Shown piece by piece: positions 283 through 49,877 of a stretch of 64,000 bases of DNA. The notes under the pieces were generated by a model. The model had not been told where the DNA came from and made no database searches. It saw only the letters and a list, made by a program, of their open reading frames with translations. Each line of letters starts with the position of its first letter. The first letter of the stretch is position 1. The position numbers and the translations under genes were made by a program. This DNA comes from Ignavibacteriota bacterium (GTDB taxonomy: Bacteria > Bacteroidota > Ignavibacteria > UBA10030 > UBA6906): assembly GCA_963801355.1 (NCBI GenBank), contig CAWDEM010000008.1, positions 2,464,001-2,528,000 of the forward strand. Reading direction: 5' to 3'.

Positions 283-311
283 AAGATAGAAAATAATGGT
301 GGAATTGTCAA
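283..311 (-). promoter_or_regulatory. sigma70-type promoter for nuo operon
   Basis: TTGACA-N17-TATCTT on minus strand, about 70 bp upstream of nuoA ATG. Confidence 0.65.
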
Positions 312-372
312 TAACGCCAGCGATGGCCCTGGGGCCATCGCTGGTATCCACAACGTTAGGATCTTCCGGATC

Positions 373-603: not shown

Positions 604-666
604 GCGCTTTTCTCCACCCTCAGTTCAGGACACGTTCCCTGCCGCCTCTCCCCTGGTCAAAAAGAA

Positions 667-682
667 TGCAAAAATCACGCCA
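667..682 (-). promoter_or_regulatory. sigma54 (-24/-12) promoter
   Basis: TGGCGTGATTTTTGCA: GG-N10-GC with TTGCA -12 box, 64 bp upstream of the 76-aa ORF. Confidence 0.6.
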
Positions 683-755
683 TAGTGGAACAACCGAAAA
701 TGTCCGCAAAACGTCCCCGGGACGGCACCGGGAAAGCAGGGGACCCGGGGCTGCG

Positions 756-779
756 TGCACATTTGTACATCTGTACATT
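756..779. repeat. Three tandem 8-bp repeats (TGYACATY), possible activator site
   Basis: tgcacatt-tgtacatc-tgtacatt, each containing a 6-bp palindrome (GTGCAC or TGTACA). Confidence 0.45.
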
Positions 780-795
780 CCCTGATCACCACATC

Positions 796-31359: not shown

Positions 31360-31392
31360 GACGTCGTGACCATTCTGCCGAGGACTCTTCCC

Positions 31393-33544: not shown

Positions 33545-33846
33545 TTATCCAGATAGCCCCGAACTCTCCACGTGTTTTAGCTGTTCACAACTGAAGCGAC
33601 CATGTCCGACGTAGTGACCGTATATACCGGTGTGGACGGTATTGAGCCGGCTGTTCCCGGAACCGTCATGAGTGTATACACGATTGCTGTTGTGGGTAGT
33701 CGCCGCGAGGATTTCCGCCGGCGCCCGTTGCAGCTTATCGGGTGGCACCGGTTCATGCGCACGCATACCTACGACAAAGGCGGGAGTGTTGTGGAGACCC
33801 CGGCCCCCCCAACCCTCGATCTCCGCATTTGATTGCCGAGCACACT

Positions 33847-34248
33847 ATGCAACATCTTTTTGCGATGCAACCGTACGAAGCAACAACAGAAAACATCACC
33901 ATCACGGTACGCCCCCTGTACCTGGACGGTCAGTCCGATGCCATCGCAAGGAAATTTGTCTTTGCCTACTTCATTACCATCGAAAACAACGGCACAGAGC
34001 CCGTGCAACTGCTCCGGCGTCATTGGTTTATCCGGAATGCATCCGATGAATTACGGGAAGTCGAGGGAGAAGGGGTTGTCGGCCAGCAACCCGTCATACA
34101 CCCCGACAAGGGACACGAGTACAACAGCTATTGTGTGCTGGACACGTTCGAAGGCACGATGGAAGGCACCTACCTGATGCGCCGCCCCAGTGGCGAGCTG
34201 TTCTATGTGGTCGTTCCCCGCTTCACTCTCCGGGCACAGGCGAACTAG
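33847..34248 (+). CDS. apaG: ApaG/CorD domain protein
   Basis: FVFAYFITIEN, QLLRRHW.I, VEGEGVVGQQP, GTMEGTY (start may be 33865). Confidence 0.92.
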   Translation: MQHLFAMQPYEATTENITITVRPLYLDGQSDAIARKFVFAYFITIENNGTEPVQLLRRHWFIRNASDELREVEGEGVVGQQPVIHPDKGHEYNSYCVLDTFEGTMEGTYLMRRPSGELFYVVVPRFTLRAQAN

Positions 34249-35233: not shown

Positions 35234-36235
35234 CTACTTCGCCATAATCATAAGCCGCGCGGCGGAATAGTCACCGGCAGTCAGACGGCAAAAGTAGACA
35301 CCCCCGGCAAGCCCGGTCGCATTGAATGAACGCGTGTGAAGACCCGCTGACAGCTCTTCGTCCACAAGCGTGGAGATCTCACGCCCCAGGGCGTCATACA
35401 CCTGTAACGTCACCCATCCTGCCTTCGGCAGCGAAAAGGCAATTTGCGTGGATGGGTTGAAGGGATTGGGATAGTTCTGATGCAACGCATACGCGGACGG
35501 AATACCGGTCGCCTGATCGCCCACCGCCGTGGAAGAATAGCGCGTGATCCGTACGTCGTCGACGCAGATCTTGTCGGAGTTCGATCCGTCTTCCCCTCCG
35601 TCGTACAGCAGATAGCGGAACGCAACATAGCGTGTCGTCCCCTGCGGAAGGAGCAAAGCCACGCGGGTCCATGCGCTCTTCGGAACATTCATATAGACAA
35701 GACGCGTGAAGCTTCCAACGGCTTTGTCCGTGGTGGACACTCTGACATCGAGAGAATCGGCATAGGAGCCGCTGGAAGAAAGCCGAGACACAGTCCAGAA
35801 GGTCAGGGAATCGACACTTCCGGCCGGGGCGGAACTGCCAGTGTTTGGCGTCACCAACCAATCATCCAGCAAGTACCCGTTTGAGGTGCCCCAATACGCC
35901 GCGGCACACGCGATCCCTTCAAACATCGGGAGTCCGACATCTCCGCCCACAACAAACGATTGATACCAGCACGTATCGCTCGGATCGGCCAAGGTGGTGG
36001 ACACGCCATGGTCATTGTTGATCATGGTCCACCCGGAGTTCAGGAACCAGGCGATTGTCGTGTCGTTGAAGCCTTCTTTGAAGATTTCGACGCCGGCATT
36101 GATCTCATTGGGCGCCGGATTGACAATGACCGGACCGGCCGAGGTCTTTTCTTTCCCCTGTTTCTGGGCGAGCCCTATTCCCGCGACGCACAAGACTAGC
36201 ACAAATACGGTAGCAAAGCGCAGCGCATTTTGCAT
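35234..36235 (-). CDS. T9SS substrate with cleaved-adhesin (choice-of-anchor J-like) domain
   Basis: Signal peptide; GWT.IN.D, DDWLVTP, YVAFRY, VDDVRI; CTD QNYPNPFNP...GVYFCRL. Confidence 0.8.
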   Translation of the reverse strand: MQNALRFATVFVLVLCVAGIGLAQKQGKEKTSAGPVIVNPAPNEINAGVEIFKEGFNDTTIAWFLNSGWTMINNDHGVSTTLADPSDTCWYQSFVVGGDVGLPMFEGIACAAAYWGTSNGYLLDDWLVTPNTGSSAPAGSVDSLTFWTVSRLSSSGSYADSLDVRVSTTDKAVGSFTRLVYMNVPKSAWTRVALLLPQGTTRYVAFRYLLYDGGEDGSNSDKICVDDVRITRYSSTAVGDQATGIPSAYALHQNYPNPFNPSTQIAFSLPKAGWVTLQVYDALGREISTLVDEELSAGLHTRSFNATGLAGGVYFCRLTAGDYSAARLMIMAK

Positions 36236-36267
36236 GGTACCTCCCGCGTAGAGTCGATGATGTGTAA

Positions 36268-36320
36268 GTTGTGATGAATTCCTTTCACAGAAGAATACAT
36301 GCCATACCGGGTAATGTCAA
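36268..36320 (-). promoter_or_regulatory. sigma70 promoter plus operator-like motif (copy 2)
   Basis: TTGACA-N17-TATTCT at 36292-36320; plus-strand motif gttgtgatgaattcctttca at 36268-36287. Confidence 0.7.
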
Positions 36321-36333
36321 GGTCTCTCTTTCA

Positions 36334-37335
36334 CTAGAATTCCAATGCCACCCCGAACCGGTGGACGGAGGGGAGGAGGTCGTACGATACAAAGGCATAA
36401 TCGAAGCCAACATGCAGACTGCCTGCGGGGACGGAAGCGCCCACACCCACCGACCACCTTGCCGTGTCGTCGCCAAACCTGTAGCCCCCACGGACAGAGA
36501 GACACTGCATGATTGTAGCTTCAATTCCCGCGCACACGAGTTCATCATTATCGTTCGGGTGGATGACGTCGGTCGCAAGGAGCACCGACAGTTCGTCGCT
36601 GATATAGGGCGACATGGAGAGTCCGACTTGGAAATGCAGCGGGAGGGGATATCCCTCAGCCTGAATCTGCGCCGGCAGCAGCCGCTCCGTGGAAATGGAC
36701 GAATTTGCGTCATAGTCCACTCCGAGATCTCTGCCCTCGAACGTGAGGTCGCCGCCGAAATTCGTGACGCTCATACCGAGCCGGAGATCCCTGAATCCAA
36801 TTTGGTAGAGGGTTCCGATGTCTACGGCAAGACCGCCGGCAGTCTCGTTCCAGATCCGCTGGTGGACATATTTCGCGGTGAGCCCGACGCTGAAGTCCTC
36901 GGTGAGTTTGCGCGCATAGCTGATCCCGAGCATGAGGTCCTGCGCGTCGAAAGACTGGCCGGAGGTCCCTTCGGGGTCGTCTTCCGTCGTTACCGCGATC
37001 TTGTCCATGGTCATCGACGTGAACGAGAGTCCGAAAGACCCTATTTCGCCGAACGATTGCACGTACGCGGCATGGTTCAACCGGCTCCCCGCCCACCACT
37101 CCTCGTGAGAGGCGATGAGGGCGCTGCCCTTCACTCCGATGGTGCCCGCCGGATTCCAGAAGAGCGCGCTCGCATCATCGCCGCACGATGTGAAGGCGCC
37201 GCCGAGGGCCGCCGCTCGTGCGCCCACGGGTATCTTCAGGAACTGCGCGCCAGCTGTTCCCAGGTTGGGGTTTTGAGCATGAAGCATCCCGACCGACAGG
37301 ACTGCAATCGCACAGCCAAGTGTAAGTCGTCTCAT
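36334..37335 (-). CDS. PorV/PorQ-family outer-membrane beta-barrel
   Basis: GTAGAQFLKIPVGARAAALG, ALFWNPAG, DYAF, terminal Phe. Confidence 0.88.
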   Translation of the reverse strand: MRRLTLGCAIAVLSVGMLHAQNPNLGTAGAQFLKIPVGARAAALGGAFTSCGDDASALFWNPAGTIGVKGSALIASHEEWWAGSRLNHAAYVQSFGEIGSFGLSFTSMTMDKIAVTTEDDPEGTSGQSFDAQDLMLGISYARKLTEDFSVGLTAKYVHQRIWNETAGGLAVDIGTLYQIGFRDLRLGMSVTNFGGDLTFEGRDLGVDYDANSSISTERLLPAQIQAEGYPLPLHFQVGLSMSPYISDELSVLLATDVIHPNDNDELVCAGIEATIMQCLSVRGGYRFGDDTARWSVGVGASVPAGSLHVGFDYAFVSYDLLPSVHRFGVALEF

Positions 37336-37345
37336 GGTCTACCTC

Positions 37346-39817
37346 CTACTTGATCACCGCGAATCGACCGAGCTTTTCCGCGGTGTCGGTCTTGACCAGG
37401 TACACGTACATACCGGCTGCGATCACCCTGTTCCCATCGGTGCGCAGGTCCCAGTTTTCGGTGCCTGTGGTGCCGTCGTGGGTGATGACTTTGATCTTGT
37501 CACCCGCCAAGGTGAAGATGGTAATGGTACAATGGGCGGGGAGATGGTTGAACTTCAACTGGCGTATCGGTTCCTTGCGCAGGACGCCGTATTCCCGCTC
37601 GTAGAGGGAGCCGACGAGATACGGATTGGGAACCACTTTGACGTTGTCCAGTTCATTGGCGCTGATGTCGGTACGTACCTCTACGGGGACTGTTGACACC
37701 ATGAATACATCAGTATAGGTAATCAGACTCGACGAGGAGTCGTTATCCCGCATGACGGCGAACACGATGCCGTCGTCCGTCGCGTAGTGCGTACCGTACC
37801 CAAAGGGGCGAAGGCTCAGGACCGTCGTCCCTCCCGTGGAGGCCACGACTCCGGGATGGATCAGAATGGAATCACCCGTTTCGGGTCTCGCATCTGCCAC
37901 GGAGGCCGTATCGGTCAGGAGGATTCGGAGTCCCGTTCCTCCCATCGTGATCGGCATCCCGGAGGTGTAGGGGCCTGAGGCCCTGATCACTTTCCCTGTG
38001 GTCAGGCTAAGGATAGAGTAGGTCGATGCGGATTTGAACACCAACGCATAGGTGCCGGGATCCGTTTTCACTCCTTCAACTGTTGTCAGGCTGATGATCG
38101 ACTGCAGATTTCCCTTTGCGACGGTGAAGGTGGGGGCAAAACCGATACTGTATTCCTTTCCACCGGCTCCGGGGATGTCAAGCTGCGAAACATCAAGCGT
38201 GACCTTTGCCGATCCGGAATGCGTGATAGTTGAGACCCGGGCCGGAGTTCTTCCTACCGCGCGTGACTCCGGAGTCGCCACGCCGACATTCTGTTCTTCT
38301 GCTGTATAGCCCAGGCTGCTTTCCAGGATCGTTTCATCACTTGTCATCGCATAGGCAGTCACCGAATACCAGTAGGTATAGCCGTTGATAAGAGAGGAAT
38401 CGACGTATGAATTTTGCAGGCCGGTGGATTTGTCAAAGGTCGCGAGCGGAACGGGATCGGATCCCGCCGAAGGGTTCGCGTTGCGATCAATCTGGTCCCA
38501 GTGCTGGCCGAAGTCCACGCTCTTGTACAGGCGGTAGCCCTGGAAGTTTATCTCGTGCGTGATGGGATCGCGTGAAGACTCCGCTGCGTTGTCCCATGTG
38601 ATGGTCGCGCGTCCATCCCCGGAAACAACGGTCACTGCAGGGGTGGTCGGTGCCTTTGGCGTGGCAAAATTGGCACGATAAAGGTCCCACGCATTGCTCG
38701 TGATGGCGTCCATTCCCGCGGCATCGATGGCGGCGATAAACGCCGTGACAAAATGGAGGGTGTCGCCCGGCGCCAGCGTGTAAGGCCCGGAGCCAATGCT
38801 CGACACCAGGTCAATTCCGGCCGATCCGATCGTGGCGGGATCGTCAATATGGATATTGGGCGCGTTTGCGCCGGGATGAAAGTACATTGGCCCGTACCGC
38901 GACGCATGGAGTGAAGGAGAACTCGAATAGATTCCGTATTGCACCGAATCGATGTCGATGTCGTCATCGTACCTCATGTAGTGAAGATCGGTGATGCCAC
39001 GCTGAACACCGTTGATCTCGGGAGTCCGCAGCATGAGGAAGCCGAATCTTCCCGACTGGCCGCCCCACTGCACGGACGTTCCGGCGTCAAGGTACACGAC
39101 CCGCTGCAAGGACTTGTCGAACGCCAGCCGGTCATTCGCGTAATCGACCGCGCTCTCCGACCCGCCGATATCGGGGTCGATATACATGCCAAAATAGACG
39201 TTGTCGTAGGTGTTCTGCGACTTGTTCACGATGTCGAAGCAGTAAATGACCATATCGCGAATGGATTTGGCCCCGAACGCGTATCCCGTTTGATTCACCT
39301 GGATACCGAGGATGCCTTTGCTGTTGGTCGAATCGTTGTAGACGCAATAGCTGTCCTGGCTCGATACGAACACCGGGCTTCCGTCCGCCGCCTTGACAGG
39401 CCATCCGGTGGCCGGCCAGCTGTAGGGTTTGTCGCTCATGGCCACCGTAGCACTGTCGATATTGTTGTACCCCGCGGCCGCCTCCCATTCCTCATTTGTG
39501 GTGAAGCGTCCCTGGATCATATTTCCAGGGATGCCGACGTACGGATTTGCCCGATACACGTATTCGTGCTGACTCTTAATCGGCCATTCGAAGGTTGGGC
39601 CGAGAGCTACAAAGTGAGGATACAATTTCCCGCGATTCTCAAATGCCGATCCCATGTTGCTGCGATTGTGGTTTCCTCCCCCGCGGCTCAGCATGCCGGT
39701 GGTCTTGGCGAGCACGGCCGAAGTCGAAGACTTCGGCCCCCGTTTTTGTGCGGGTGCGGGTACGACCGAGACCAATATTCCCGCAAGAAGGCAGACAACG
39801 AAAGCGCTTCGCATCAT
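37346..39817 (-). CDS. Large exported protein with FN3-like region and variant CTD (VVPNPY...WDL...GMYVY)
   Basis: Signal peptide; SQDSYCVYND, YFGMYIDPDIG, FQGYRLYKS, YWYSVTAY; between TBDR and PorV-like gene. Confidence 0.75.
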   Translation of the reverse strand: MMRSAFVVCLLAGILVSVVPAPAQKRGPKSSTSAVLAKTTGMLSRGGGNHNRSNMGSAFENRGKLYPHFVALGPTFEWPIKSQHEYVYRANPYVGIPGNMIQGRFTTNEEWEAAAGYNNIDSATVAMSDKPYSWPATGWPVKAADGSPVFVSSQDSYCVYNDSTNSKGILGIQVNQTGYAFGAKSIRDMVIYCFDIVNKSQNTYDNVYFGMYIDPDIGGSESAVDYANDRLAFDKSLQRVVYLDAGTSVQWGGQSGRFGFLMLRTPEINGVQRGITDLHYMRYDDDIDIDSVQYGIYSSSPSLHASRYGPMYFHPGANAPNIHIDDPATIGSAGIDLVSSIGSGPYTLAPGDTLHFVTAFIAAIDAAGMDAITSNAWDLYRANFATPKAPTTPAVTVVSGDGRATITWDNAAESSRDPITHEINFQGYRLYKSVDFGQHWDQIDRNANPSAGSDPVPLATFDKSTGLQNSYVDSSLINGYTYWYSVTAYAMTSDETILESSLGYTAEEQNVGVATPESRAVGRTPARVSTITHSGSAKVTLDVSQLDIPGAGGKEYSIGFAPTFTVAKGNLQSIISLTTVEGVKTDPGTYALVFKSASTYSILSLTTGKVIRASGPYTSGMPITMGGTGLRILLTDTASVADARPETGDSILIHPGVVASTGGTTVLSLRPFGYGTHYATDDGIVFAVMRDNDSSSSLITYTDVFMVSTVPVEVRTDISANELDNVKVVPNPYLVGSLYEREYGVLRKEPIRQLKFNHLPAHCTITIFTLAGDKIKVITHDGTTGTENWDLRTDGNRVIAAGMYVYLVKTDTAEKLGRFAVIK

Positions 39818-39852
39818 GGTCTTCTCTTGAATAATCAGCAAAGGTTGCATGG

Positions 39853-42315
39853 TTAGAATCTCAGGCGCGCACCGATGCGCATCCGGCGCGGCGGGCCGTA
39901 GTTGCTCGGATCCTGCATGTACTCCAGGGAATGCCCCCCGTCATAGGTCACATCCGGCTCGCCAGTATCGGTCCAGACGTACACCACGTTTTTCGCGTTC
40001 GTCAGGTTGAGGACTTCAATAAACACTTCAAGGGACAAGGGGGCAATTTTCCACGCTTTGCTGGCCTCCAGATCGATCGAAAAGGTCGGCGGCATGCGTC
40101 CGGAATTCTTCGGAATGTAGTTGCTCCTCCGTGCCGACGGCGTGTAGGGTTCTCCGCTGGCAGCCTTCACCAGAACATCCCACGTGGTGTTTTCCAGCGG
40201 TCGAAGTCCCAGCAGTGAAGGGCCCTCACCCTCGGGAATGCCGACGATCAGGTTCATGTTGAACATGTGTGTCCGGTCCCAGTTGAGCGGATACAGCAAT
40301 GTCGACTTGGTGGTCCCGGGATAATCTTCCTGCTCCGAAGAAGCGCTCCCTTTGGCCACCGAGTAGGTATAGGTGATCATGCCTCCCACATAGCCGACGC
40401 GGCGCATGTTCAGCCGGACTTCGAACGATTTGATGTTGGCATACGCTTCGTTCACGTAGATTGTATAGGCAACGTATCTTCCGCCGGCGTAGGGGTAGTA
40501 GTACTGCGTCCCGATCAGACCGGTGACATCCTTGTATGCCGCCGTGAAGGATCCCGAAAGGGCGTCGGTGAATTGATGGCTGACGCCGACTTCATAGGCC
40601 GTGGTGCGTTCAGGATTCAGATCCGGTTGGCCAAAAAGCGGTTCCTTGACAGCGATGTCATACTGAGAGTTTTCAAACAGCCGCAGGTAATCAGGGTTCT
40701 GGAAAAAACGGCCGTAGGAAAAATGAAGCGATGTCCGATCACTGATCGGGTGGGCAACTCCGAGGCGCGGGCTCCATTGTTGTTTCGGCTGGGACTGGAC
40801 TATTGAGGTCGGATCAAGCGGATTCGATCGGAATGGCGAGCGCTGATTCGCGTAGTCGTAGCGGAGACCAAGGTTTACCACCAGGGCGGAGAGCGAAATT
40901 TGATCCTGCACATATGCCGAACCTTCGAGCGGCTTCTGTTGGAATGAAGTGATGTACGGATTCACCCTTTTGGGGTCGTACACGTCAAGAAAATCGAGTG
41001 TGTGTTTCTTGAATTCAAATCCGGCACGGATTTCGTTCCACGTGTCCGCCTGCCAGGTCGCGTCGCCCTTGATATCAATTGTGGTGGTGGCATTCTTTGT
41101 CAACTCGACCGGGTCCTCCAGCGAATAGAACTCATGACCGTTGCCGGCGCTGCTGACATATTCGTATGAGCCGACAGGGATGTATTGCGAGGTGTCCTTG
41201 TCGACGCCGGAGTAGTACGACTGTGAGAAGTAGGAGACGCGGAGGTCGTAGAAGAATGACGGAGAGACGGTATGCGTGATGCCGAGAATTCCCTGGCGAC
41301 TCATCTCGCGCACGCGCAGGTACTGCTCGGGAATGTATTTCCACCTGTGGTTGTACGGACGGTTGTCCTCGTCGGTGTACCGCCATGTGAGAGTGGTCTT
41401 CACCGACGAAAGGGGCCGCGCGGAGAGCTTGCTGATCAGCGATATGGTCTTGTCCGAGCCGAAGGGAAGCCAACTTCCGCGGGCATCACGTTCGCCGCTC
41501 AGGTAGAACCCGAGATCATCGCCGAATATCGGTCCGCTCAGCGATCCCGTGTACCGGTTCTCGTGATAGGTGGAAAAGGGCTTCACAAGGAAATCGCTGG
41601 TGCGACCTTCAAGGAAGCTCGAGAACGATTTACCTCCCTCCTTTGTGACGATGTTTACGACGCCGCTCATGGCACCGCCGTATTCAGCGTTGAACGTCCC
41701 GCTCATCAACAGGAGTTCGGATATCGCGTCGTTGTGGATCGTGGTCCCGCGGGAGCCGAGGACCGGGTCCTTGACATACATCCCGTCGATCAGATACGCC
41801 ACTTCGTTGCTCCTCCCGCCGCGAATATAAAGGGTGTTACCCGAACCGGCCACGCCTGCCTGAAGAGCGAGCACCTCGGCGAAGTCCTTCGCCGGCAGCT
41901 GGGAGATCTGTTCGCTGCTGACCACTACCACAGACGCCGTCGCGTCCCGCTGGAAGGGAGGTGCGACGGCCTGGACGACAACCTCATCCATGTCGACCGT
42001 CGATGGGGCGCACTGTATGTCGATGGTCGTGGTCCGGTCCAACTCGACCCTCACGTTTTTGATGGACGTGGTTGCGTATCCGATCAACGTGACGCGCAGA
42101 TCATAGGCTCCCGGCGGAATGTTGAGGATGAAGTATGTTCCGTCGGGCCCCGTTGAGCCACCGAGGCGTGTGCCCACAACGGTGACATTCGCTCCGGCCA
42201 GCGGCTCTCCGCGGCCCCGTTCGGTCACCGTGCCGGCGATCTTCCCCGTCGTTCCGGCAAAGAGCGTGGTGCAGAACAGCGCTGCCGCCCAGGTCAGGTG
42301 AAGGAGAGACTTCAT
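39853..42315 (-). CDS. TonB-dependent receptor with N-terminal carboxypeptidase-regulatory-like domain
   Basis: GTTGKIAG, IRGGRSNEVAYLIDG, FNAEYG.AMSGVVNIVTK plug, SPRLG, terminal F. Confidence 0.9.
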   Translation of the reverse strand: MKSLLHLTWAAALFCTTLFAGTTGKIAGTVTERGRGEPLAGANVTVVGTRLGGSTGPDGTYFILNIPPGAYDLRVTLIGYATTSIKNVRVELDRTTTIDIQCAPSTVDMDEVVVQAVAPPFQRDATASVVVVSSEQISQLPAKDFAEVLALQAGVAGSGNTLYIRGGRSNEVAYLIDGMYVKDPVLGSRGTTIHNDAISELLLMSGTFNAEYGGAMSGVVNIVTKEGGKSFSSFLEGRTSDFLVKPFSTYHENRYTGSLSGPIFGDDLGFYLSGERDARGSWLPFGSDKTISLISKLSARPLSSVKTTLTWRYTDEDNRPYNHRWKYIPEQYLRVREMSRQGILGITHTVSPSFFYDLRVSYFSQSYYSGVDKDTSQYIPVGSYEYVSSAGNGHEFYSLEDPVELTKNATTTIDIKGDATWQADTWNEIRAGFEFKKHTLDFLDVYDPKRVNPYITSFQQKPLEGSAYVQDQISLSALVVNLGLRYDYANQRSPFRSNPLDPTSIVQSQPKQQWSPRLGVAHPISDRTSLHFSYGRFFQNPDYLRLFENSQYDIAVKEPLFGQPDLNPERTTAYEVGVSHQFTDALSGSFTAAYKDVTGLIGTQYYYPYAGGRYVAYTIYVNEAYANIKSFEVRLNMRRVGYVGGMITYTYSVAKGSASSEQEDYPGTTKSTLLYPLNWDRTHMFNMNLIVGIPEGEGPSLLGLRPLENTTWDVLVKAASGEPYTPSARRSNYIPKNSGRMPPTFSIDLEASKAWKIAPLSLEVFIEVLNLTNAKNVVYVWTDTGEPDVTYDGGHSLEYMQDPSNYGPPRRMRIGARLRF

Positions 42316-42325
42316 GGTTGGACCT

Positions 42326-43207
42326 CTACTCAGTGAAGTAGTGCCCCGCCTGGCGAAGAAGATCTTCCGTCTTTCTGAGGTTGTCGGTGGCCCGGTGCTT
42401 GCTGCGCAGGGCGACCTCTGTGGTCAGAGCGTTGATCAGGACGGAGATGGCGGAGATGGAGTTGGTGAAGAGCAGATTCTGACTGGCAATCGGCAGAACC
42501 GCTCTGCTGACGAAACAGACGGGTGATGTCACCCGATCGGTCACAGCTACCACTGGAATGCCTCTCGATGCGAGAGCCTGCGCCGTGTCAATCGTCTCGC
42601 GGGAATAGGGCTGGAACGAAAAGGCGACGGCGACGTCCGACGGGCTGACCTGATGAATCTGTTCAAAAAACGTCTCGTGCTCGTGGGCAAAGGGCGTCGA
42701 GCGCACCGCGACCTGATTGAGCGAATACGAGAGCACTCTCGCCAGCAACGAGGAGATGCCCAGACCGAACGTGTAGACGTGGGCAGCCTTGAGGAACATC
42801 TCTGACACCCGGACGAAAACCGCACGATCGATCTGGGTGATGGTCTGATTGATGTTCTTCACGTCCTGCTGCGCTACGGCCGTGAGGGTCTCTTCGTCGC
42901 TCTCTCCCGACAGCAGCGGATATGTTTCGGCGCCTGAGATCTCTGATTGGGCGCCTTCGCGCACCCGCTCCCGGAGCTCGAGGTATCCGGAGAAACCCAG
43001 GCTTTGGGCGAGCCGGACGACGGTCGCCTTGCTCGTCCCACTCAGGTCCTCCAGATTGATCACCGACAGGAAGGGCACCTCCCGGATGCGCTGAAGCAGC
43101 ACGTCAGCCACCTTGCGCTGATTCTCCGGGAGGTTGGGATAAGCAGACTGAACGATAAACGGGAGATCGATCGGAGCTTCCCGTTCCTTTTTAGCCTTTC
43201 GCGCCAT
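42326..43207 (-). CDS. MurR/RpiR-family transcriptional regulator
   Basis: HTH SKATVVRLAQSLGFSGY; SIS domain FGLGIS, VAVTD...SP. Confidence 0.9.
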   Translation of the reverse strand: MARKAKKEREAPIDLPFIVQSAYPNLPENQRKVADVLLQRIREVPFLSVINLEDLSGTSKATVVRLAQSLGFSGYLELRERVREGAQSEISGAETYPLLSGESDEETLTAVAQQDVKNINQTITQIDRAVFVRVSEMFLKAAHVYTFGLGISSLLARVLSYSLNQVAVRSTPFAHEHETFFEQIHQVSPSDVAVAFSFQPYSRETIDTAQALASRGIPVVAVTDRVTSPVCFVSRAVLPIASQNLLFTNSISAISVLINALTTEVALRSKHRATDNLRKTEDLLRQAGHYFTE

Positions 43208-43212
43208 TGCGA

Positions 43213-45150
43213 TTATTTCTGCAGTACCATCTTTGTTGTCGACACAAATGATCCTGCCATAAGCCTGCAGAAGTACACCCCACTGGCCAGCCGGCTGCCG
43301 TCAAATCTGAACGAGAATTGTCCCGCTGGATAGTCTCCATCGGCCAGGATGGCAACTTCACGGCCAAGCAGATCGCAGACAATCAGTTTCACGTGGCCGG
43401 CAACCGGCCACTGACAGTTGACCACTGTCGACGGGTTGAACGGGTTGGGATAATTTTGCCGGAGCGCGAATCCTTCCGGTACGCCGAGGCTCACCTGCTC
43501 GACCGACGTAGAGAGGTTATACCTCTGAACTGCCGCATCGCTCACCGTGCGGAGGCCTTCGAGGCTTGTGCTGTACAGGTACGCTACCGTGTACGCAACT
43601 GAGCCCTTTGCAGCAATCGTCTCGGTTCCAAAATTGAGGTTGAAGAACGAGCCGTTGACCCCTGCCACGATGGGGGCATCGAACCCGGGAAGAGCCGTCA
43701 TACGCCAGCGGGTCGAATCAGTCGCCGCGTCAGCGTTCGCGTCCGTGGGGGAATACACGTCCCAGTCGAGCGCATGGAAGGAAACCGGATCCCGACCGAT
43801 GATCTTTACGCCGGTATACGGTGTTTCACCCTGCCGGAAGAAATACGCCATCTTCTTCGTGGCATCATACGCCACTGTCTCGCCCCCATAGGTCTCGGAG
43901 GGTTCGGGCACGCACCCCATGCCGATGTGCACCGTGCTGGCCGCCGCTGAGTAGTTTGTGATGGTATAGTCCACAAGAACGAACGGGTCGTTCTTCCACG
44001 CGTGGACCCCTCCGAGAACGCGGACGTCCGGAGGGGCGGGCGGATCCTGCCACGAATTGTCGAACAGCGCCGTCGCGACTGTATCGGCCGCCCCGCCGAT
44101 GGAGAGGGCAGCCGACGTCATGACATAGTACGCGTCTTCCTCATAGTCGAACACGTGGGCGGAATCAAGCCCGATGACGAGCGACGCACGACCCAACTGC
44201 GTATAGAAGTCTTTGTCGTAGAGCGCCAAGCTGCCGGCCCTGTTCAACTTGAACCTGACGTTGCCCGTCCCACCGTAGACGTTCTTCACAGCCGACGCGG
44301 CCAGTAACTTGGCATAGCGCTGCTCCGCCGAATCACTCATCGCGCGGAGGCCTTCGAGGCTTGTGCTGTACAGGTACGCTACCGTGTACGCAACTGAGCC
44401 CTTTGCAGCAATCGTCTCGGTTCCAAAATTGAGGTTGAAGAACGAGCCGTTGACCCCTGCCACGATGGGGGCATCGAACCCGGGAAGAGCCGTCATACGC
44501 CAGCGGGTCGAATCAGTCGCCGCGTCAGCGTTCGCGTCCGTGGGGGAATACACGTCCCAGTCGAGCGCATGGAAGGAAACCGGATCCCGACCGATGATCT
44601 TTACGCCGGTATACGGTGTTTCACCCTGCCGGAAGAAATACGCCATCTTCTTCGTGGCATCATACGCCACTGTCTCGCCCCCATAGGTCTCGGAGGGTTC
44701 GGGCACGCACCCCATGCCGATGTGCACCGTGCTGGCCGCCGCCGAGTAGTTTGTGATGGTATAGTCCACAAGAACGAACGGGTCGTTCTTACTTGCGTAC
44801 ACGTTTTCGATGACTCGGGCATCCGGAGGAGGGGGTGGATCCTGCCATGAATTATCGAACAGCGCCGTTGCGACCGTGTCGGCCTTTCCTGCCGACGAGA
44901 GAATGACCGAGGTGGTGAGATACATTGCATCTTCCTCATAGTCGAACACGTGCGCGGAATCAAGCCCGATGACGAGCGACGCACGACCCAACTGCGTATA
45001 GAAGTCTTTGTCGTAGAGCGCCAAGCTGCCGGCCCTGTTCAACTTGAACCTGACGTTGCCCGTCCCACCGTAGACGTTCTTCTGTGCCAACATGCAGGTC
45101 GGGAGCAACAAGACCGCCATGAGAGAAAGTGTAACAAAGGTTCGATTCAT
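43213..45150 (-). CDS. T9SS substrate with two tandem ~265-aa uncharacterised domains
   Basis: Start MNRTFVTL with AGGAGG SD; signal peptide; internal duplication; CTD QNYPNPFNP...SGVYFCRL. Confidence 0.85.
   Translation of the reverse strand: MNRTFVTLSLMAVLLLPTCMLAQKNVYGGTGNVRFKLNRAGSLALYDKDFYTQLGRASLVIGLDSAHVFDYEEDAMYLTTSVILSSAGKADTVATALFDNSWQDPPPPPDARVIENVYASKNDPFVLVDYTITNYSAAASTVHIGMGCVPEPSETYGGETVAYDATKKMAYFFRQGETPYTGVKIIGRDPVSFHALDWDVYSPTDANADAATDSTRWRMTALPGFDAPIVAGVNGSFFNLNFGTETIAAKGSVAYTVAYLYSTSLEGLRAMSDSAEQRYAKLLAASAVKNVYGGTGNVRFKLNRAGSLALYDKDFYTQLGRASLVIGLDSAHVFDYEEDAYYVMTSAALSIGGAADTVATALFDNSWQDPPAPPDVRVLGGVHAWKNDPFVLVDYTITNYSAAASTVHIGMGCVPEPSETYGGETVAYDATKKMAYFFRQGETPYTGVKIIGRDPVSFHALDWDVYSPTDANADAATDSTRWRMTALPGFDAPIVAGVNGSFFNLNFGTETIAAKGSVAYTVAYLYSTSLEGLRTVSDAAVQRYNLSTSVEQVSLGVPEGFALRQNYPNPFNPSTVVNCQWPVAGHVKLIVCDLLGREVAILADGDYPAGQFSFRFDGSRLASGVYFCRLMAGSFVSTTKMVLQK
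43549..45082. repeat. Intragenic direct repeat, 795-bp period (43549-44287 and 44344-45082)
   Basis: Near-identical at DNA level except one ~150-bp diverged patch. Confidence 0.92.
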
Positions 45151-45161
45151 CGTTCCTCCTG

Positions 45162-46553
45162 TTAATGATAGTGGAACAGAAAGGGGGGTATGAGAAGCAA
45201 TAATGCAAGGACAAAGAAAAATACCTGCACTGGAAGCATCCATTTGAACCAGCGTTCCCACGGGATTCCGGCGAGTCCGAGCACGCCCATCGTGACCCCC
45301 GACGTCGGAAGGATTGGATTGATCCACCCCTCGCCGAACTGGAACGCAAGCACCGCCGTCTGCCGGGAAATCCCCACGACATCCGCCAGCGGGGCCATCA
45401 CCGGCATCGTCAGCGCGGCCTGTCCGGAGCCGGAATGCACGAAGAAATTGATGATCCCCTGCGTCACAAACATCGCCTGCGCCGCAAGAATCGGGTGCAA
45501 ACCGGATATCATATTCGCCAGTCCGTACAGCATGACATCCAAAATCTTCCCGTCCGTCGCCACCACAAGAATAGCGCGCGCGCACCCGATGATGAGTGCA
45601 ACCCCCACCATATCCCGGGCCCCTTCCTTGAAGGCATCCGCCGTGGCTGAGACCGAAAGACGGCCCAGAGTCCCCCCGGCAATACCCAGCCCGAGGAAGA
45701 GCCCGGCAATTTCATTGATGTACCACCCGAATTTCAACACGCCCACAACGAGAAAAAGCATTGCCGCGCCGAACAGACCAAGCACAAGACGCTGCGGCAC
45801 CGTCATGCCCGGCTGGGGCGTCCCGGACAGATGCAGGCTGCCCTTCCGTTCACAATCCAGGTCGTACACCGGACTCTGCTCCGGAGATGCTTTGATCTTC
45901 CGTGCATACAGCGCGACAAAGGTGATCATGCAGGTGGTGCTGATGACCCAGATGATCATACGGTATTCGATACCTGAATAGAGGGGGAGTTCCGCAATCC
46001 CCTGCGCAATGCCGATGGTAAACGGGTTCAACACCGCGCCGGCGAATCCCGCCGCCGCCCCCAGGAAAGGGATCGCCGTACCCACAATGGAGTCATAGCC
46101 GAGAGAGAGCGCAAGCGGGATGAAAATAAGCACAAACGGCATCGTTTCCTCACACATCCCGAACACCGCTCCGCCGAGGGAAAAGATGGTCATCGTGACG
46201 GGAATAAAGAACTTCTGGAGGCGCGGGCGACGGGCAAAGGTGAATGCCATCGACTGGACCGCGGTGGTGACCGCACCTGTCTTCTCCAGCACTTTGAACG
46301 TTCCGCCGATAAGGAATACAAACGCGATGATATGGGCCGCTTCGATGAACCCCTTCACCGGCGAAATGAGAAGCGCCCCGATGCCTTGCGGGTTACTCGG
46401 GACTTCCGTAAAAGATCCGGGCACCACGAGCGTTCTGCCGTCTTTCACCTGGCGGGTGTAGCTCCCCCCGGGCAGAACCCACGTCGCCGCCGCCACGAGG
46501 GCGACGACGGAAAAAATCATCACCAGCGTGTGAAAATGAAACGACAGTTTCAT
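45162..46553 (-). CDS. YfcC-family (ion transporter superfamily) membrane transporter
   Basis: PGGSY.R, GMCEET, NPFTIGIAQGIAELP.YSG, SGSGQA..TMP.MAPLAD, PTSG. Confidence 0.88.
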   Translation of the reverse strand: MKLSFHFHTLVMIFSVVALVAAATWVLPGGSYTRQVKDGRTLVVPGSFTEVPSNPQGIGALLISPVKGFIEAAHIIAFVFLIGGTFKVLEKTGAVTTAVQSMAFTFARRPRLQKFFIPVTMTIFSLGGAVFGMCEETMPFVLIFIPLALSLGYDSIVGTAIPFLGAAAGFAGAVLNPFTIGIAQGIAELPLYSGIEYRMIIWVISTTCMITFVALYARKIKASPEQSPVYDLDCERKGSLHLSGTPQPGMTVPQRLVLGLFGAAMLFLVVGVLKFGWYINEIAGLFLGLGIAGGTLGRLSVSATADAFKEGARDMVGVALIIGCARAILVVATDGKILDVMLYGLANMISGLHPILAAQAMFVTQGIINFFVHSGSGQAALTMPVMAPLADVVGISRQTAVLAFQFGEGWINPILPTSGVTMGVLGLAGIPWERWFKWMLPVQVFFFVLALLLLIPPFLFHYH

Positions 46554-47476
46554 GGAATGCCCCTTCGCCGGAGGGGCACGAGCCGGCGCATGTCATAGCG
46601 ATCACCGTCGAGAAGGATGTCCATGCGCACGCCGTCGGCACCCAGGTTACCTTCCGTGTCATTGTGGATGTTCACCGCCCGGGATGCATCGAGTATCATG
46701 ACGCTTCCCTTCCCCGCCACCCGGAAGGTGCTGTCGGGTGCGACGATCACCGCCGTTGCCTCATCTATGCCGATGCCCACATGTGGTGCATGCTCCAGGA
46801 CGACGCTGATCAACCGGTTCATCCGTTTCCGCCGGATGAAATGCTGATCCACGATCACGGTCGTGAGTAATCCCAGCCCCTCCGTGACCACAACGTTGTC
46901 CCGTTTGATGAACACGAACCCGTTCACGGAATCACGGTTCAACTTCTCGTCTCCGGTCAGCATGACGGCACTCATGACGGCCGCACCCGCACTGGTGCCG
47001 CCGATCACCGCCCCCGAGCGGTACAACGCTTTCAGCTTGCCCTGCACCGGCGTTCCCACGAGTTCCTTTGTGATGCGCGATTGGTCCCCGCCGGTGAAGT
47101 ACACCCCCGTGACGCCGTTGAACTCGTCGAGAATGCCGGGGGACATTGCCTGTTCGCGCGTGATGAAAAGCGACCGTGCGCTCCCCACGCCCAACCCGTG
47201 GAACTCTTCTGCCATTTCACGCCCGGTCGTGTCCCCATCGCCGCTGGCCATGGGCAGAATGAGTATGGATGCGTGCGCGGGCCCGCCGGCCAGGCGCACG
47301 TATTCTTTCATGAGGTCGGGGCTGCGGTGACCGCCCCCGATAATAAAGAGATGCCCGCCCCTGGGCCCCCCGCCTGCCGCTGGACCCGAGAGACCGGCAA
47401 GGAGCAGAAGCATGCTGAAGACGACAGCACCCTGGTGACGGATGAAATTCCCCGGGCGGTTGTCAGACGTTCTCAT
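46550..47476 (-). CDS. Cyanophycinase (peptidase S51) with signal peptide
   Basis: IIGGG, FTGGDQ, GGTSAGAA, DQHFIRRKRMNRL, GIGIDEAT; hydrophobic leader VVFSMLLLLAGLSGPAAG. Confidence 0.88.
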   Translation of the reverse strand: MRTSDNRPGNFIRHQGAVVFSMLLLLAGLSGPAAGGGPRGGHLFIIGGGHRSPDLMKEYVRLAGGPAHASILILPMASGDGDTTGREMAEEFHGLGVGSARSLFITREQAMSPGILDEFNGVTGVYFTGGDQSRITKELVGTPVQGKLKALYRSGAVIGGTSAGAAVMSAVMLTGDEKLNRDSVNGFVFIKRDNVVVTEGLGLLTTVIVDQHFIRRKRMNRLISVVLEHAPHVGIGIDEATAVIVAPDSTFRVAGKGSVMILDASRAVNIHNDTEGNLGADGVRMDILLDGDRYDMRRLVPLRRRGIP

Positions 47477-48581
47477 CGGGTGCCCTCTGGATCAGGTCGT
47501 GAGCGATCGCATAGGCGTTCGCAAAATCCCCGAGCAGGATAAATTCGTCTTTGCCGTGCGGATTCTGCGCTCCGACCCCGAGATTGACAGCCGGGAGATT
47601 TTTGGCGTTGAGCATGTTTGCATCGCTGCCGCCGAGATACTCGATCGGATCCGGCACCAGCCCGAGCCGTCGCAGCACAGTGCACGCGCGCCGGAAGACC
47701 GGGGCATCAGACGAGAGTGTGAAGGGAGGGAAATCCACTGCGCTCTGTATTTCCACGGTCGACTGAAACTCACGGCCGGTGGCTTCGAAGAGCGCAGTCA
47801 TATCGCCCAGGTACGCGTCGATCTCCCCGGGCAGAAATGAGCGCACTTCGCCTTCGATGCAGCAGCTGTCGGGGACGACGTTGGTCGCGGTGCCGCCTTT
47901 GATGATGCCGACGCTGGCGGTCATCTTGGGCGCCAGCCGCCCGATACGCATCCGCGCGATCGCGTGGGCGGCCATCTGGATCGCGTTGATGCCTTTCTCC
48001 GGAGCCACCCCCGCATGTGATGCCCGGCCGTGAAATGTCGCCGTGTACACAGACGAGCCGACACACGATTGGATGAACGTCCCGGGCCGCCGCGAGCAGT
48101 CAAAGATATACGCCATCCTCGCGTTGAACGGCGACAGGTCGACGTGCCTGGCACCCCACATGCCCAGCTCCTCCGCAACGGTAAAAACCACCATGGCGTT
48201 GCCCAGCGGTTGCGTTGTTGCGGTTGAACGCAGCGCGTGCAGGAGGATGCTCACGCCCGCACGGTTATCCACACCGAGGATCGTGGATCCGTCACCGGTG
48301 ATGCGATCGGAGGCAACGACCGGGCGGACGCCCGCGGTCGGCGAGGGGGTGTCAAGATGAGCAAACAACACGGTCGCAGGCAGATCCGGGGAAAACGTGT
48401 GCGGCACACAGATCAGGTTGCCGCACCCCGTTCCCAGTACTGATGCAGCATCATCCTCGACAATCCTTACCGGCAGTCCTGACAGCTTCTCCCGGACGAA
48501 GGCAGCCATGGGCGCCTCATGGAGCGACGGCGCGTCAACCCGGACTGCCTCCAGGAACAGCTCCACCAGCGGTGAGAGCAT
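47463..48581 (-). CDS. M20-family peptidase T-like metallohydrolase
   Basis: AHLDT, LGVDNRAG, AEELG, HAG.APEKGINAI, GGSDAN, NPH..DE; no signal peptide. Confidence 0.87.
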   Translation of the reverse strand: MLSPLVELFLEAVRVDAPSLHEAPMAAFVREKLSGLPVRIVEDDAASVLGTGCGNLICVPHTFSPDLPATVLFAHLDTPSPTAGVRPVVASDRITGDGSTILGVDNRAGVSILLHALRSTATTQPLGNAMVVFTVAEELGMWGARHVDLSPFNARMAYIFDCSRRPGTFIQSCVGSSVYTATFHGRASHAGVAPEKGINAIQMAAHAIARMRIGRLAPKMTASVGIIKGGTATNVVPDSCCIEGEVRSFLPGEIDAYLGDMTALFEATGREFQSTVEIQSAVDFPPFTLSSDAPVFRRACTVLRRLGLVPDPIEYLGGSDANMLNAKNLPAVNLGVGAQNPHGKDEFILLGDFANAYAIAHDLIQRAPDENV

Positions 48582-48606
48582 GGGAAAGGGTTTCCAGAAG
48601 AGAGGT

Positions 48607-48659
48607 GTTATGAGAAATTCTTTTCAGCAGAATATACGTCCGGTCCAGGGCAATGTCAA
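48607..48659 (-). promoter_or_regulatory. sigma70 promoter plus operator-like motif (copy 1)
   Basis: TTGACA-N17-TATATT at 48631-48659; plus-strand motif gttatgagaaattcttttca at 48607-48626. Confidence 0.75.
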
Positions 48660-48700: not shown

Positions 48701-49855
48701 TTATCTGAATGTCATGGTGATTTCTACGATTTCCGGACTGTTGCCGGTTCTTACCGGGGGGCCCCAGGTACCGGCGCCGCTGGAAACGTAGTAATGCGTC
48801 GAGCCTTTCAGGAGATACCCCCAGCTGATTTCGTATATGGCCGACGTGATGTAATTGAATGGCCAGAGTTGCCCATGATGCGTGTGCCCCGAAAGTTGCA
48901 GGTCAACACCATGGGCTGCCGCCTCGTCCAGGTCGAATGGTTGATGATCCATCAGTATAAGCGGGGCGCGCGCGTCAACACCATCCAGCACTGCATCAAG
49001 TGACTTCCGCGCCTCCCCCCCGAATTGCCTGCTGCTGCGGTCCTGCCTCCCGGCAAGCAGGATGCCCCCATCGATTGCCACACAGGTATCCCTCAGCATG
49101 CGTATCCCGTGTGCTTCCAGGTATGCGCACGCCTTCTCCGCGCCGCCGATATATTCGTGATTCCCCGTGATGCCGTAGACGCCTCTGGGTGCCCTGATCG
49201 AAAGGAGTGTTTCACCGAGATTCTGCCGCAGCACGGGCCCGAGATCCTCATCGACGACATCACCCGCAAAGAGAACGAGGTCCGGACGGAGTTCATTGAT
49301 GCGATCCACAAGGCGTGCGAGGTGCTTCTTGCCAACGATCGTACCCAGATGCACGTCGGAGATCATCACCGCGCGGAGGGAATGGATGCCCTGCGCCTGC
49401 TTGTCGACAGTCACAGACAACCGCTGGATACGAGGCGTTCTGGCATTCCAGTATCCTCCCGCAAGCACCACCATCACGAGCGCGACAACCCCGAGCGTGC
49501 CAATCTGGCGCACCCGGACCGGATCGCCCATAGCGGGCATCGGAATGGGGAGGATCAGCAACACGAGACGCACAAGGTCAACTGCCAGGCAGGCAAGGAC
49601 AAAATAGGCCAGCGCAGCAAGCCAGAACGAGCCAATCCAGACAAACAGGTCACTGACCGCGGAAATCCAGTAGTTCTCCAGCACCCGGCCGATGATGAAC
49701 GAGAGGGAAACAACAGCGAACAGCACGGCGTACCATGTGCGCAGAGATGTCGATGCGGGCAGAGCCTGCCACCCACGGAAAAAGACATACGCATTGACAC
49801 TGAAATAGACCGTGAAGAACACGAGGAAGAAAGTCAGCATGAGGTGCTTTCGCAT
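48701..49855 (-). CDS. Membrane-anchored metallophosphoesterase (YkuE/YaeI-like)
   Basis: N-terminal TMs; SDVHLG, GDVVD, GNHE, DHQP, SGHTHHGQ. Confidence 0.88.
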   Translation of the reverse strand: MRKHLMLTFFLVFFTVYFSVNAYVFFRGWQALPASTSLRTWYAVLFAVVSLSFIIGRVLENYWISAVSDLFVWIGSFWLAALAYFVLACLAVDLVRLVLLILPIPMPAMGDPVRVRQIGTLGVVALVMVVLAGGYWNARTPRIQRLSVTVDKQAQGIHSLRAVMISDVHLGTIVGKKHLARLVDRINELRPDLVLFAGDVVDEDLGPVLRQNLGETLLSIRAPRGVYGITGNHEYIGGAEKACAYLEAHGIRMLRDTCVAIDGGILLAGRQDRSSRQFGGEARKSLDAVLDGVDARAPLILMDHQPFDLDEAAAHGVDLQLSGHTHHGQLWPFNYITSAIYEISWGYLLKGSTHYYVSSGAGTWGPPVRTGNSPEIVEITMTFR

Positions 49856-49877
49856 TATGGACTGATTCGGGTGGGGG

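Follow-up and report, generated by a model that had tools for sequence, protein, structure and literature searches.

Does an operon that sets a cyanophycinase gene beside genes for an M20 peptidase, an inner-membrane carrier, a TonB-dependent receptor and type IX secretion system (T9SS) surface proteins serve the use of foreign cyanophycin, and in what form would the substrate enter the cell? This question is raised by a locus of an Ignavibacteriota bacterium. We analysed a 64,000-nt stretch of its DNA, hereafter the window (assembly GCA_963801355.1, contig CAWDEM010000008.1, positions 2,464,001 to 2,528,000 of the forward strand), together with the genome (G000) and related loci. The locus occupies 35234-48659 of the window and holds nine open reading frames (ORFs; 35234-48581), all on the minus strand. 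A sequence-only reading had proposed that surface proteins capture cyanophycin, that the receptor imports it, that a periplasmic S51 enzyme cuts it to dipeptides, and that the YfcC carrier imports and the M20 enzyme splits these. With moderate confidence, we favour the interpretation that the locus is a regulated scavenging system for foreign cyanophycin, the Ignavibacterial counterpart of a polysaccharide utilisation locus.

All nine ORFs lay where the sequence-only reading had put them, and the order and packing it described were confirmed by their coordinates. Neighbours among the first eight genes are spaced between a 14-bp overlap and 35 bp (in operon order, -14, -4, 11, 5, 10, 2 and 10 bp), followed by 98 bp to the ninth gene; the 2-bp spacing, which precedes the gene of an 834-aa protein, becomes 35 if the nearly invariant Met12 of that protein is the start. 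Family searches named seven of the nine ORFs, and these names agreed with those given before. The first gene (47463-48581) encodes a PepT-like M20 metallopeptidase without a signal peptide (Peptidase_M20 and M20_dimer domains), the second (46550-47476) an exported S51 cyanophycinase (TIGR02069), and the third (45162-46553) an inner-membrane carrier of the YfcC/DcuC family (DcuC, 334 bits; NF008611 YfcC, 376.9 bits, under its cut-off of 500), a candidate dipeptide importer. The fourth gene (43213-45150) encodes a 645-aa duplicated T9SS protein with two supersandwich copies and a type A C-terminal sorting domain; its start is the ATG at 45150, and the 790-aa ORF listed for it is over-extended. 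An RpiR/MurR-family regulator (42326-43207) follows, with an N-terminal HTH_6 domain (PF01418, 53 bits) and a C-terminal SIS domain (PF01380, 60.2 bits). The TonB-dependent receptor (39853-42315) has an N-terminal carboxypeptidase-regulatory-like domain and stands outside the SusC/RagA subfamily, as its match to TIGR04056 reached 79.1 bits against a cut-off of 368.25 and covered the N-terminal 200 residues only. The 834-aa surface protein (37346-39850) consists of a signal peptide, a supersandwich domain, FN3/Ig-like domains and a C-terminal beta-sandwich; searches of Pfam and NCBIfam gave no match to it. The eighth gene (36334-37335) encodes an outer-membrane barrel of the PorV/PorQ family (NF033709, 197.9 bits; cut-off 90) that stays under the specific models for PorV (58.7 versus 250 bits) and PorQ (102.7 versus 220 bits). 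The ninth (35234-36235), with its own promoter, encodes a choice-of-anchor-J protein ending in a type A T9SS tail. The T9SS C-terminal sorting domain (TIGR04183 / PF18962, cut-off 23) scored 28.4 bits in the duplicated protein and 32.0 bits in the choice-of-anchor-J protein. Family searches of the operon detected no glycoside hydrolase, sugar kinase or sugar transporter.

The S51 protein scored 179.5 bits with the equivalog model TIGR02069 (179.9 in the genome search), over the cut-off of 126.6, and it aligned along its length with the solved cyanophycinases 7uqv and 3en0. The motifs TGGDQ, GTSAG, DQHF, R-x-R-x-x-R and GIDE aligned with those of both structures. We aligned 67 orthologues from such loci and a single cphA-linked cphB with the window protein. 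Gln132, Ser162, Asp210, Gln211, His212, Arg216, Arg218, Arg221 and Glu239 were retained in 68-69 of these 69 sequences; we take the Ser, His and Glu to be catalytic, and Gln132, Asp210, Gln211, Arg216, Arg218 and Arg221 to form the pocket. By its sequence, the protein is a cyanophycinase. The N-termini of the S51 orthologues listed are Sec-type signal peptides, and the sole cphA-linked cphB that was read begins at the catalytic core. The S51 protein itself has a Sec signal and no T9SS tail, suggesting that it most likely resides in the periplasm, behind the receptor.

The M20 protein has no hydrophobic leader at its N-terminus. Its residues H75, D105, E137, E138, D161 and H342 were invariant in 8 of 8 orthologues and, by analogy, presumably form the di-metal site and the catalytic Glu. 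The protein reached 218.7 bits with the PepT-like model TIGR01883, short of the cut-off of 274.25; its closest solved relative is 3gb0 (214.6 bits), and a distant one, 7ljh, is a poly(aspartic acid) hydrolase (52.4 bits). Searches of the genome detected neither IadA nor an AstE/AspA-type CphZ. Taken together, the four proteins have a predicted layout with the receptor in the outer membrane, S51 in the periplasm, YfcC in the inner membrane and M20 in the cytoplasm.

No gene for cyanophycin synthetase (cphA) was detected in the window or in the genome, which is 100% complete with 0.14% contamination. The best cphA match in the genome, at 130.7 bits against a cut-off of 850, was Mur-ligase-like. 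The sequence-only reading had noted the absence from the window, and the genome search extended it to the complete genome; because of this absence we read the locus as one for scavenging rather than storage. The genome holds one S51 gene. Among 301 genomes sampled from the class, 44 contained a cyanophycinase and 16 contained cphA over the respective cut-offs; all 16 were among the 44, and the remaining 28 have a cyanophycinase without the synthetase. The cphA-linked cyanophycinases adjoined cphA and scored 225-302 bits (one, in G041, 180.7), and those of the 28 cphA-less genomes were of a lower-scoring type (156-208 bits). We examined 12 cphA loci of the class (about 12-20 kb) and found no M20, YfcC or locus-type receptor gene near them. 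In the phylum, 88 of 401 genomes sampled had a cyanophycinase over the cut-off, and the 30 best-scoring loci were mostly storage pairs: within 1.5 kb on either side, cphA was adjacent in 24/30 and M20 in 0/30. The M20 peptidase was also considered as the general missing dipeptidase of cphA-bearing Bacteroidota, and this was rejected on the same 0/12 and 0/30 loci.

To which function the M20 gene corresponds was judged from its place among other loci. A second phylum set covered 6 kb on either side of 20 lower-scoring cyanophycinase hits outside the class. Seven of these 20 loci had SusC together with SusD (L186-L188, L191, L192, L195 and L196), one further locus had SusD only and another a SusC match only. 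An IaaA-like gene was present in six and IadA in one (7/20 together), YfcC in three, an RpiR regulator with a receptor of the window type in three, and cphA in one; M20 was present in none. Conversely, IaaA, IadA and SusD were adjacent in none of 80 loci anchored on M20. Three of the 20 loci were checked with family models. L192 contains SusC (925 bits), SusD, an IaaA-like gene, a cyanophycinase (167.8 bits) and YfcC, then a second S51-like gene and one of the arginine-deiminase family; L191 contains M28, IadA (438 versus 331 bits) and a cyanophycinase, next to which are a 652-aa protein resembling S51 and a receptor resembling SusC; L197 contains a receptor, RpiR, a protein with a T9SS C-terminal domain, YfcC and a cyanophycinase, with an IaaA-like gene alongside. 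In other Bacteroidota, exported cyanophycinases are thus found in SusC/SusD loci together with IaaA or IadA and at times YfcC. Since equivalent loci elsewhere have IaaA or IadA there, the M20 gene occupies the slot of an isoaspartyl dipeptidase. From this gene position only, M20 is a candidate cytoplasmic beta-Asp-Arg dipeptidase, and positional equivalence is the best available argument that it would split this dipeptide. As a side observation, the arginine-deiminase-family gene of L192 (9277-10224, plus strand) comes after the second S51-like gene and fits onward use of arginine.

The operon is conserved among Ignavibacteria. In a first set anchored on S51, 12 loci were obtained from the genomes of 41 relatives, 14 of which had a cyanophycinase over the cut-off. 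The complete eight-gene order was found in 8/12; of the others, L037 is rearranged, two are cut by contig ends yet consistent, and L039, on a 5.3-kb contig, has S51 without M20. A second set, anchored on M20, comprised the best 80 of 195 relatives from species-representative genomes (one without a complete M20 ORF), with M20 identity down to 38%. Counting only loci with enough downstream sequence, S51 adjoined M20 in 71/75, YfcC lay beside S51 in 65/67, RpiR was present in 53/57 and the receptor in 52/54; the large protein and the barrel were present wherever the 10-kb flank extended far enough. Thus, synteny between the receptor-barrel module and S51/YfcC, for which the sequence-only reading had asked relatives to be searched, is found in them. 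Slot 4 varies, holding one or two supersandwich genes, the fused double-domain form, or a choice-of-anchor-J protein (L029, L030, L036, L038, L042, L043, L049, L051, L053 and L056). In L037 (G023:C12), the receptor gene is in three pieces with T9SS-tailed genes inserted between them, and the M20 gene has a frame break; from the sequence, this could be locus decay or an assembly fault.

The two halves of the operon differ in their nearest relatives and still stay joined. M20, S51 and YfcC are 79-82% identical to their counterparts in the same-genus loci L032/L041; against L033, L055, L057 and L059, M20 and S51 are 54-56% and YfcC 69-71% identical. From the duplicated protein through RpiR and the receptor to the large protein, identity is 72-86% with L033/L055/L057/L059 and only 36-62% with L032/L041. 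The barrel is 80% identical in L033 and uncovered in L055, L057 and L059. By these comparisons, the operon is a mosaic (window 43213-48581 versus 36334-45150), in which a recombination joint seems to fall between YfcC and slot 4.

Some relatives encode a further S51-like protein of 620-735 aa (open-frame lengths). The one in L031 (1658-3715, minus strand; 685 aa) lies beside the operon, has a T9SS tail and scored 95.8 bits with TIGR02069, under the cut-off; by eye, it has Tyr where the catalytic Glu is expected. After it, a 507-aa protein (123-1646, minus strand) has a weak MpaA-like (M14) match. Close matches to both L031 proteins occur in L061, and matches to the S51 part occur just past the operon in L073, L076 and L079.

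The sequence-only reading had placed one strong promoter ahead of M20. This promoter, P1 (TTGACA-17-TATATT; 48631..48659, read 48659..48631 on the minus strand), matches the consensus at 11/12 positions. Promoter-like sites in the region were at chance level (7 versus 6.0 +/- 2.7 in shuffles), so the claim for P1 relies on its conserved position and not on the count of sites. In 20 of 21 family-level orthologous loci, whose M20 proteins are 53-79% identical, a site of at least 10/12 with a 17-bp spacer ends 46-54 bp ahead of the M20 start, and it reaches at least 11/12 in 18/21; TTGACA is retained at the P1 position in many distant loci. These results support the promoter as claimed. The ninth gene had also been given a promoter of its own, and a promoter-like site, P2 (TTGACA-17-TATTCT; 36292..36320, read 36320..36292, minus strand), with a 10/12 match was found in the 98-bp gap.

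Alignment of the upstream regions showed two palindromes past the -10 hexamer in the aligned loci, the O2 type about 30 bp downstream of O1. In the window, the 16-bp palindrome O1 (TGAAAAGAATTTCTCA; 48611..48626, minus strand) stands just past the -10 hexamer of P1, as a candidate RpiR site, and the 16-bp palindrome O2 (TGGAAACCCTTTCCCA; 48581..48596, minus strand) ends at the M20 start codon. Their half-sites co-vary, from TGAAA/TTTCA or TGAGA/TCTCA to TGTAA/TTACA in AT-rich genomes. O1 has a single exact match within the window. An O1-like operator (TGAAAGGAATTCATCA; 36272..36287, minus strand) stands just past the -10 hexamer of P2, matching O1 at 13/16 positions and at an equal offset from the hexamer. 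The two-site pattern occurs exactly genome-wide only at the O1 and P2 sites, a count that is circular, so that the position is the informative part; elsewhere, the genome-wide operator scan gave only mismatched sites, and no regulon was drawn. We infer that the palindromes are the operators of the operon's RpiR protein and, because of the O1-like site at the matching offset in P2, that the ninth gene would belong to the same regulon.

The fourth gene had been described as encoding an internally duplicated protein, and both DNA and protein bear this out. Two 300-nt copies 795 nt apart are 97% identical, and two 258-aa copies (aa 22-279 and 287-544) are 92% identical. The domain copies at window 43519-44292 and 44314-45087 are thus 92% identical to each other, and the double-domain orthologues in L033, L055, L057 and L059 reach no more than 72-77% identity with the window protein; this contrast suggests that the copies have undergone gene conversion or stem from a recent duplication of their own. 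A model of repeat 2 with the tail (m90ead870d305) had a predicted local distance difference test score (pLDDT) of 79.5. Foldseek matched the duplicated domain to the supersandwich domains at the N-termini of GH94 phosphorylases and of GH15 glucoamylase, for example 1lf6_A (query-normalised TM-score 0.51; root-mean-square deviation 3.7 across 266 columns). In the model of the 834-aa protein (m2bda127458c7; pLDDT 75.8), a supersandwich domain spans about aa 162-392; Foldseek with the whole protein gave mostly FN3 arrays, and the N-terminal domain was matched weakly. The supersandwich domains of the two proteins were found by hhalign to be homologous (probability 98.1%, E 1.2e-13, 180 columns). 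By this alignment, one unnamed beta-supersandwich domain is common to the duplicated and the 834-aa proteins. Neither shows an evident catalytic feature, and both are read as binders.

In PorQ-PorZ, and in PorV with its cargo, a PorV/PorQ-family barrel is known to keep a T9SS protein on the cell surface by holding its C-terminal domain. The last 100 residues of the 834-aa protein have an invariant VVPNPY motif and a beta-sandwich fold, and no sorting-domain hidden Markov model matched them. We predicted the complex of the barrel with residues 730-834 of this protein from alignments of our own making. The interface score ipSAE was 0.89, 0.89 and 0.90, and the best of three controls gave 0.02; partner pLDDT did not fall below 78, and the runs had 83% or more of their contacts in common. 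Of 80 solved complexes 58 attained this mark, as did 2 of 110 mismatched pairs. The prediction thus has the 834-aa protein docked on the barrel by its C-terminal domain. A difference from the known PorQ-PorZ and PorV-cargo pairs is that the barrel and its cargo are here encoded inside a nutrient-uptake operon, by the receptor gene.

Similar gene groups recur in the genome. A genome-wide search for SusD (PF07980) gave no match, with a positive control in B. thetaiotaomicron, and none of 39 genome matches to SusC/RagA (TIGR04056) was over the cut-off. The genome has 21 PorV/PorQ-family genes over the cut-off, and comparison of coordinates placed 17 of these within 8 kb of a same-strand receptor gene. 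At six places or more, receptor and barrel have a homologue of the large protein between them; these homologues have 1000-1230 aa (G000; loci L125-L132). Two such triads adjoin sugar genes, one a GH13 amylase with a LacI regulator and the other a GH94 phosphorylase with a LacI regulator. From this arrangement, the triad of receptor, large protein and barrel looks like the lineage's counterpart of the SusC/SusD pair, with the cyanophycin locus as one specialised instance. A tblastn search with the T9SS C-terminal domain gave more than 100 separate matches among the matches listed (contigs C4 and C8), an unusually large cargo set.

In the pathway that we propose, the T9SS-exported supersandwich proteins would bind soluble cyanophycin or (beta-Asp-Arg)n fragments at the surface, where the 834-aa protein would be held by its C-terminal domain on the neighbouring PorV/PorQ-like barrel. 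The receptor would move the ligand into the periplasm, and the exported S51 would trim it to beta-Asp-Arg. RagAB and FusA/FusC provide precedents for TonB-dependent import of a peptide or small protein followed by periplasmic cleavage. YfcC would carry the dipeptide across the inner membrane, and the cytoplasmic PepT-like M20 enzyme would split it into Asp and Arg. The RpiR-type regulator would control P1 and P2 through the palindromic operators by the -10 hexamers. As cargo of the receptor, soluble fragments or oligomers are likelier than the whole granule polymer. The exported S51, the leaderless M20, the lack of cphA, the syntenic module and the parallels with SusC/SusD loci uphold the sequence-only pathway in these parts; its surface capture and receptor passage of the polymer were unsupported. 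Its assignment of M20 as the enzyme that splits the dipeptide likewise stands in part: the gene is in the dipeptidase position, and position is the sole argument, with a cytoplasmic IaaA-like gene elsewhere in the genome.

Several observations weigh against this interpretation. M20 is not found beside cphA-cphB pairs (0/12, 0/30), so that the link of the enzyme to cyanophycin rests on this locus type. The 80 M20-anchored loci were picked by M20 similarity and are mutually related, and the counts from them overstate independence. A leaderless cytoplasmic IaaA-like gene (331.6 bits) lies 64 kb from the locus, flanked by methyltransferase-like and ClpB-like genes (both named by eye from translations), and a second Asparaginase_2 gene lies elsewhere in the genome; as either product could cleave beta-Asp-Arg, M20 is not required by elimination. 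The predicted complex may echo solved PorV-cargo structures and not this pair. The supersandwich fold is best known from carbohydrate-active enzymes, and SIS domains and RpiR regulators usually sense sugar phosphates; a glycan or glycopeptide would suit both the fold and the regulator type better than would a polypeptide. Finally, the search of G000 gave no secreted or surface S51 and no T9SS-tailed S51 match, which leaves the import of insoluble polymer unexplained. Because of this lack, the cargo of the receptor is no less likely to be oligomers or dipeptides than the polymer.

The same lack bears on a narrower account, in which the locus imports only beta-Asp-Arg or short oligomers freed by the extracellular cyanophycinases of others; the receptor would be a high-affinity gate, the periplasmic S51 would finish oligomers, and the surface proteins would not be polymer binders. 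Known cyanophycinases are exo-acting and release dipeptides, according to passages of PMC10206079, and passages of PMC9974463 argue that many bacteria live on dipeptides released by others. However, three conserved T9SS surface proteins with a common binding-type domain are hard to justify for a 290-Da ligand, and a T9SS-tailed S51-like protein stands beside the locus in L031, L061, L073, L076 and L079, so we consider this account rather unlikely, though deserving of a hearing. A glycopeptide, or another beta-aspartyl or arginine-rich peptide, might also be the true substrate, with S51 a cyanophycinase-like enzyme acting on something else in nature. The carbohydrate-enzyme-like fold of the surface proteins, the RpiR/SIS type of the regulator and the paralogous triads beside the GH13 amylase and GH94 phosphorylase genes with LacI regulators would agree with this; the S51 score over the equivalog cut-off, the intact pocket residues, the operon's lack of glycoside hydrolase, sugar kinase and sugar transporter, and the dedicated isoaspartyl peptidases adjoining homologous S51 genes in other classes would not, and such a substrate appears doubtful to us.

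Two unrelated neighbours, a peptide catabolism trio of M20, S51 and YfcC and a receptor module for another nutrient, could also produce this gene order. As their nearest relatives differ, the halves are exchangeable units: the trio is about 80% identical to that of L032/L041, whereas the other half, from RpiR and the receptor to the large protein and the barrel, has about 80% identity with L033 and, apart from the uncovered barrel, with L055/L057/L059. Yet the halves are joined in loci with M20 identity down to 38%, the gaps inside the eight genes are at most 35 bp, a single conserved promoter with operators precedes the whole set, and SusC/SusD receptors are also joined to cyanophycinases in other classes; chance neighbourhood is highly improbable. 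Turnover of the cell's own cyanophycin store by S51, for which its kinship to CphB speaks, was rejected, as the complete genome has no cphA and the enzyme has a signal peptide for export. The cphA-linked cphB, moreover, form a separate, higher-scoring set without M20, YfcC or receptor nearby, and we give this explanation practically no credence. Scavenging of foreign cyanophycin remains the reading that we prefer.

We compared the locus with known systems. It has the plan of SusC/SusD loci (including L186-L188, L191, L192, L195 and L196), in which a receptor, surface binders, a periplasmic hydrolase, an inner-membrane carrier and a regulator share one operon. Unlike in those loci, the receptor here is not of the SusC/RagA type, the genome lacks SusD, and the surface partner is a T9SS cargo predicted to be docked on a PorV/PorQ-family barrel. 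CphE of Pseudomonas anguilliseptica, attributed to Obst et al. in 2002, is reportedly an extracellular S51 cyanophycinase, and it resembles the window enzyme as an exported S51 used on foreign cyanophycin. Whereas CphE is described as extracellular, the window S51, with a Sec signal and no T9SS tail, is most likely periplasmic.

The sequence-only reading had known of no description of so complete a locus, but the idea itself is older: the concept of a cyanophycin utilisation locus (2017) and the link to TonB-dependent uptake (2012) are already known. Passages of PMC10206079 cite Ben Hania 2017 for a 'cyanophycin utilization locus' in Salinivirga cyanobacteriivorans L21-Spi-D4, and, according to a passage of PMC6243061, one of the two Salinivirga cyanophycinases has a Por secretion domain. 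As described in these passages, Salinivirga is likewise a cphA-less Bacteroidota scavenger with cyanophycinases, an isoaspartyl dipeptidase and a transporter grouped, and its Por-tailed cyanophycinase resembles the S51-like proteins that, in some relatives of G000, adjoin the locus and carry a T9SS C-terminal domain. The Salinivirga locus, as cited, uses iadA, whereas the window locus has a PepT-like M20 and the genome has no IadA; the window locus also has an RpiR regulator, a non-SusC receptor and a PorV/PorQ-like barrel. In Citromicrobium sp. JLT1363, the adjacency of genes for a TonB-dependent transporter and a cyanophycinase was interpreted as TonB-dependent import of cyanophycin (Tang et al. 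2012, PMC3400609). That organism is an alphaproteobacterium and the case a two-gene adjacency; a dipeptidase, a carrier, a regulator or surface proteins are not named in the passages of PMC3400609.

Passages of PMC10206079 describe clusters for scavenging, equipped with amino-acid transporters, as common among genomes lacking cphA, and state that the dipeptidases of Firmicutes and Bacteroidota are still to be discovered. IadA, IaaA and CphZ cleave beta-Asp-Arg in the cytoplasm, and their genes stand beside cyanophycinase in cphA-less genomes (passages of PMC10206079 and PMC9974463); like them, M20 would act in the cytoplasm from such a locus, and it differs from all three in fold family. Because M20 is absent beside cphA-cphB pairs, it may explain only the scavenging loci of Ignavibacteria. 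Literature searches, with subscription journals and supplements outside their scope, found no publication pairing cyanophycin with YfcC and, among the matches listed, none combining Ignavibacteria, TonB-dependent and PorV; for Ignavibacteria with cyanophycin, the passages of PMC6243061 contain no mention of the locus. For cyanophycin utilisation loci by that name, and for Flammeovirga with cyanophycin, they gave only the Sharon and Schmeing paper. These searches found in print neither the replacement by M20 nor the set of RpiR and operators, and neither the surface proteins with supersandwich domains nor the PorV/PorQ-docked receptor module.

The genes around the locus are not evidently linked to it. 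On one side are a metallophosphoesterase (48701-50050) and a 937-aa PDZ-GAF-SpoIIE/PP2C phosphatase (49878-52691), whose ORFs overlap, so that one start is over-called; on the other are a PD40 and S9 prolyl-oligopeptidase-family protein (31366-33462) and an ApaG-domain protein (33742-34248).

A wider picture can be put forward tentatively, as a possibility rather than an expectation. The uptake core of SusD-less Ignavibacteria would consist of a receptor, a T9SS supersandwich binder and a PorV/PorQ-like barrel, with one locus specialised for cyanophycin. M20 would be a fourth, unrelated kind of beta-Asp-Arg dipeptidase, and the RpiR/SIS regulator would sense a peptide-derived signal instead of a sugar phosphate. 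Cyanophycin is a widespread store of fixed nitrogen, and its consumers after lysis of the producer are poorly known outside a few isolates. The locus yields a candidate new type of beta-Asp-Arg dipeptidase that can be put to the test and a defined set of promoter, operators and regulator for induction studies, and it is a concrete case of a SusD-less lineage coupling type IX secretion to TonB-dependent uptake. As the locus-bearing metagenome-assembled genomes of Ignavibacteria come, by their record titles, from fens, soils and sediments, the pathway may matter for nitrogen recycling there.

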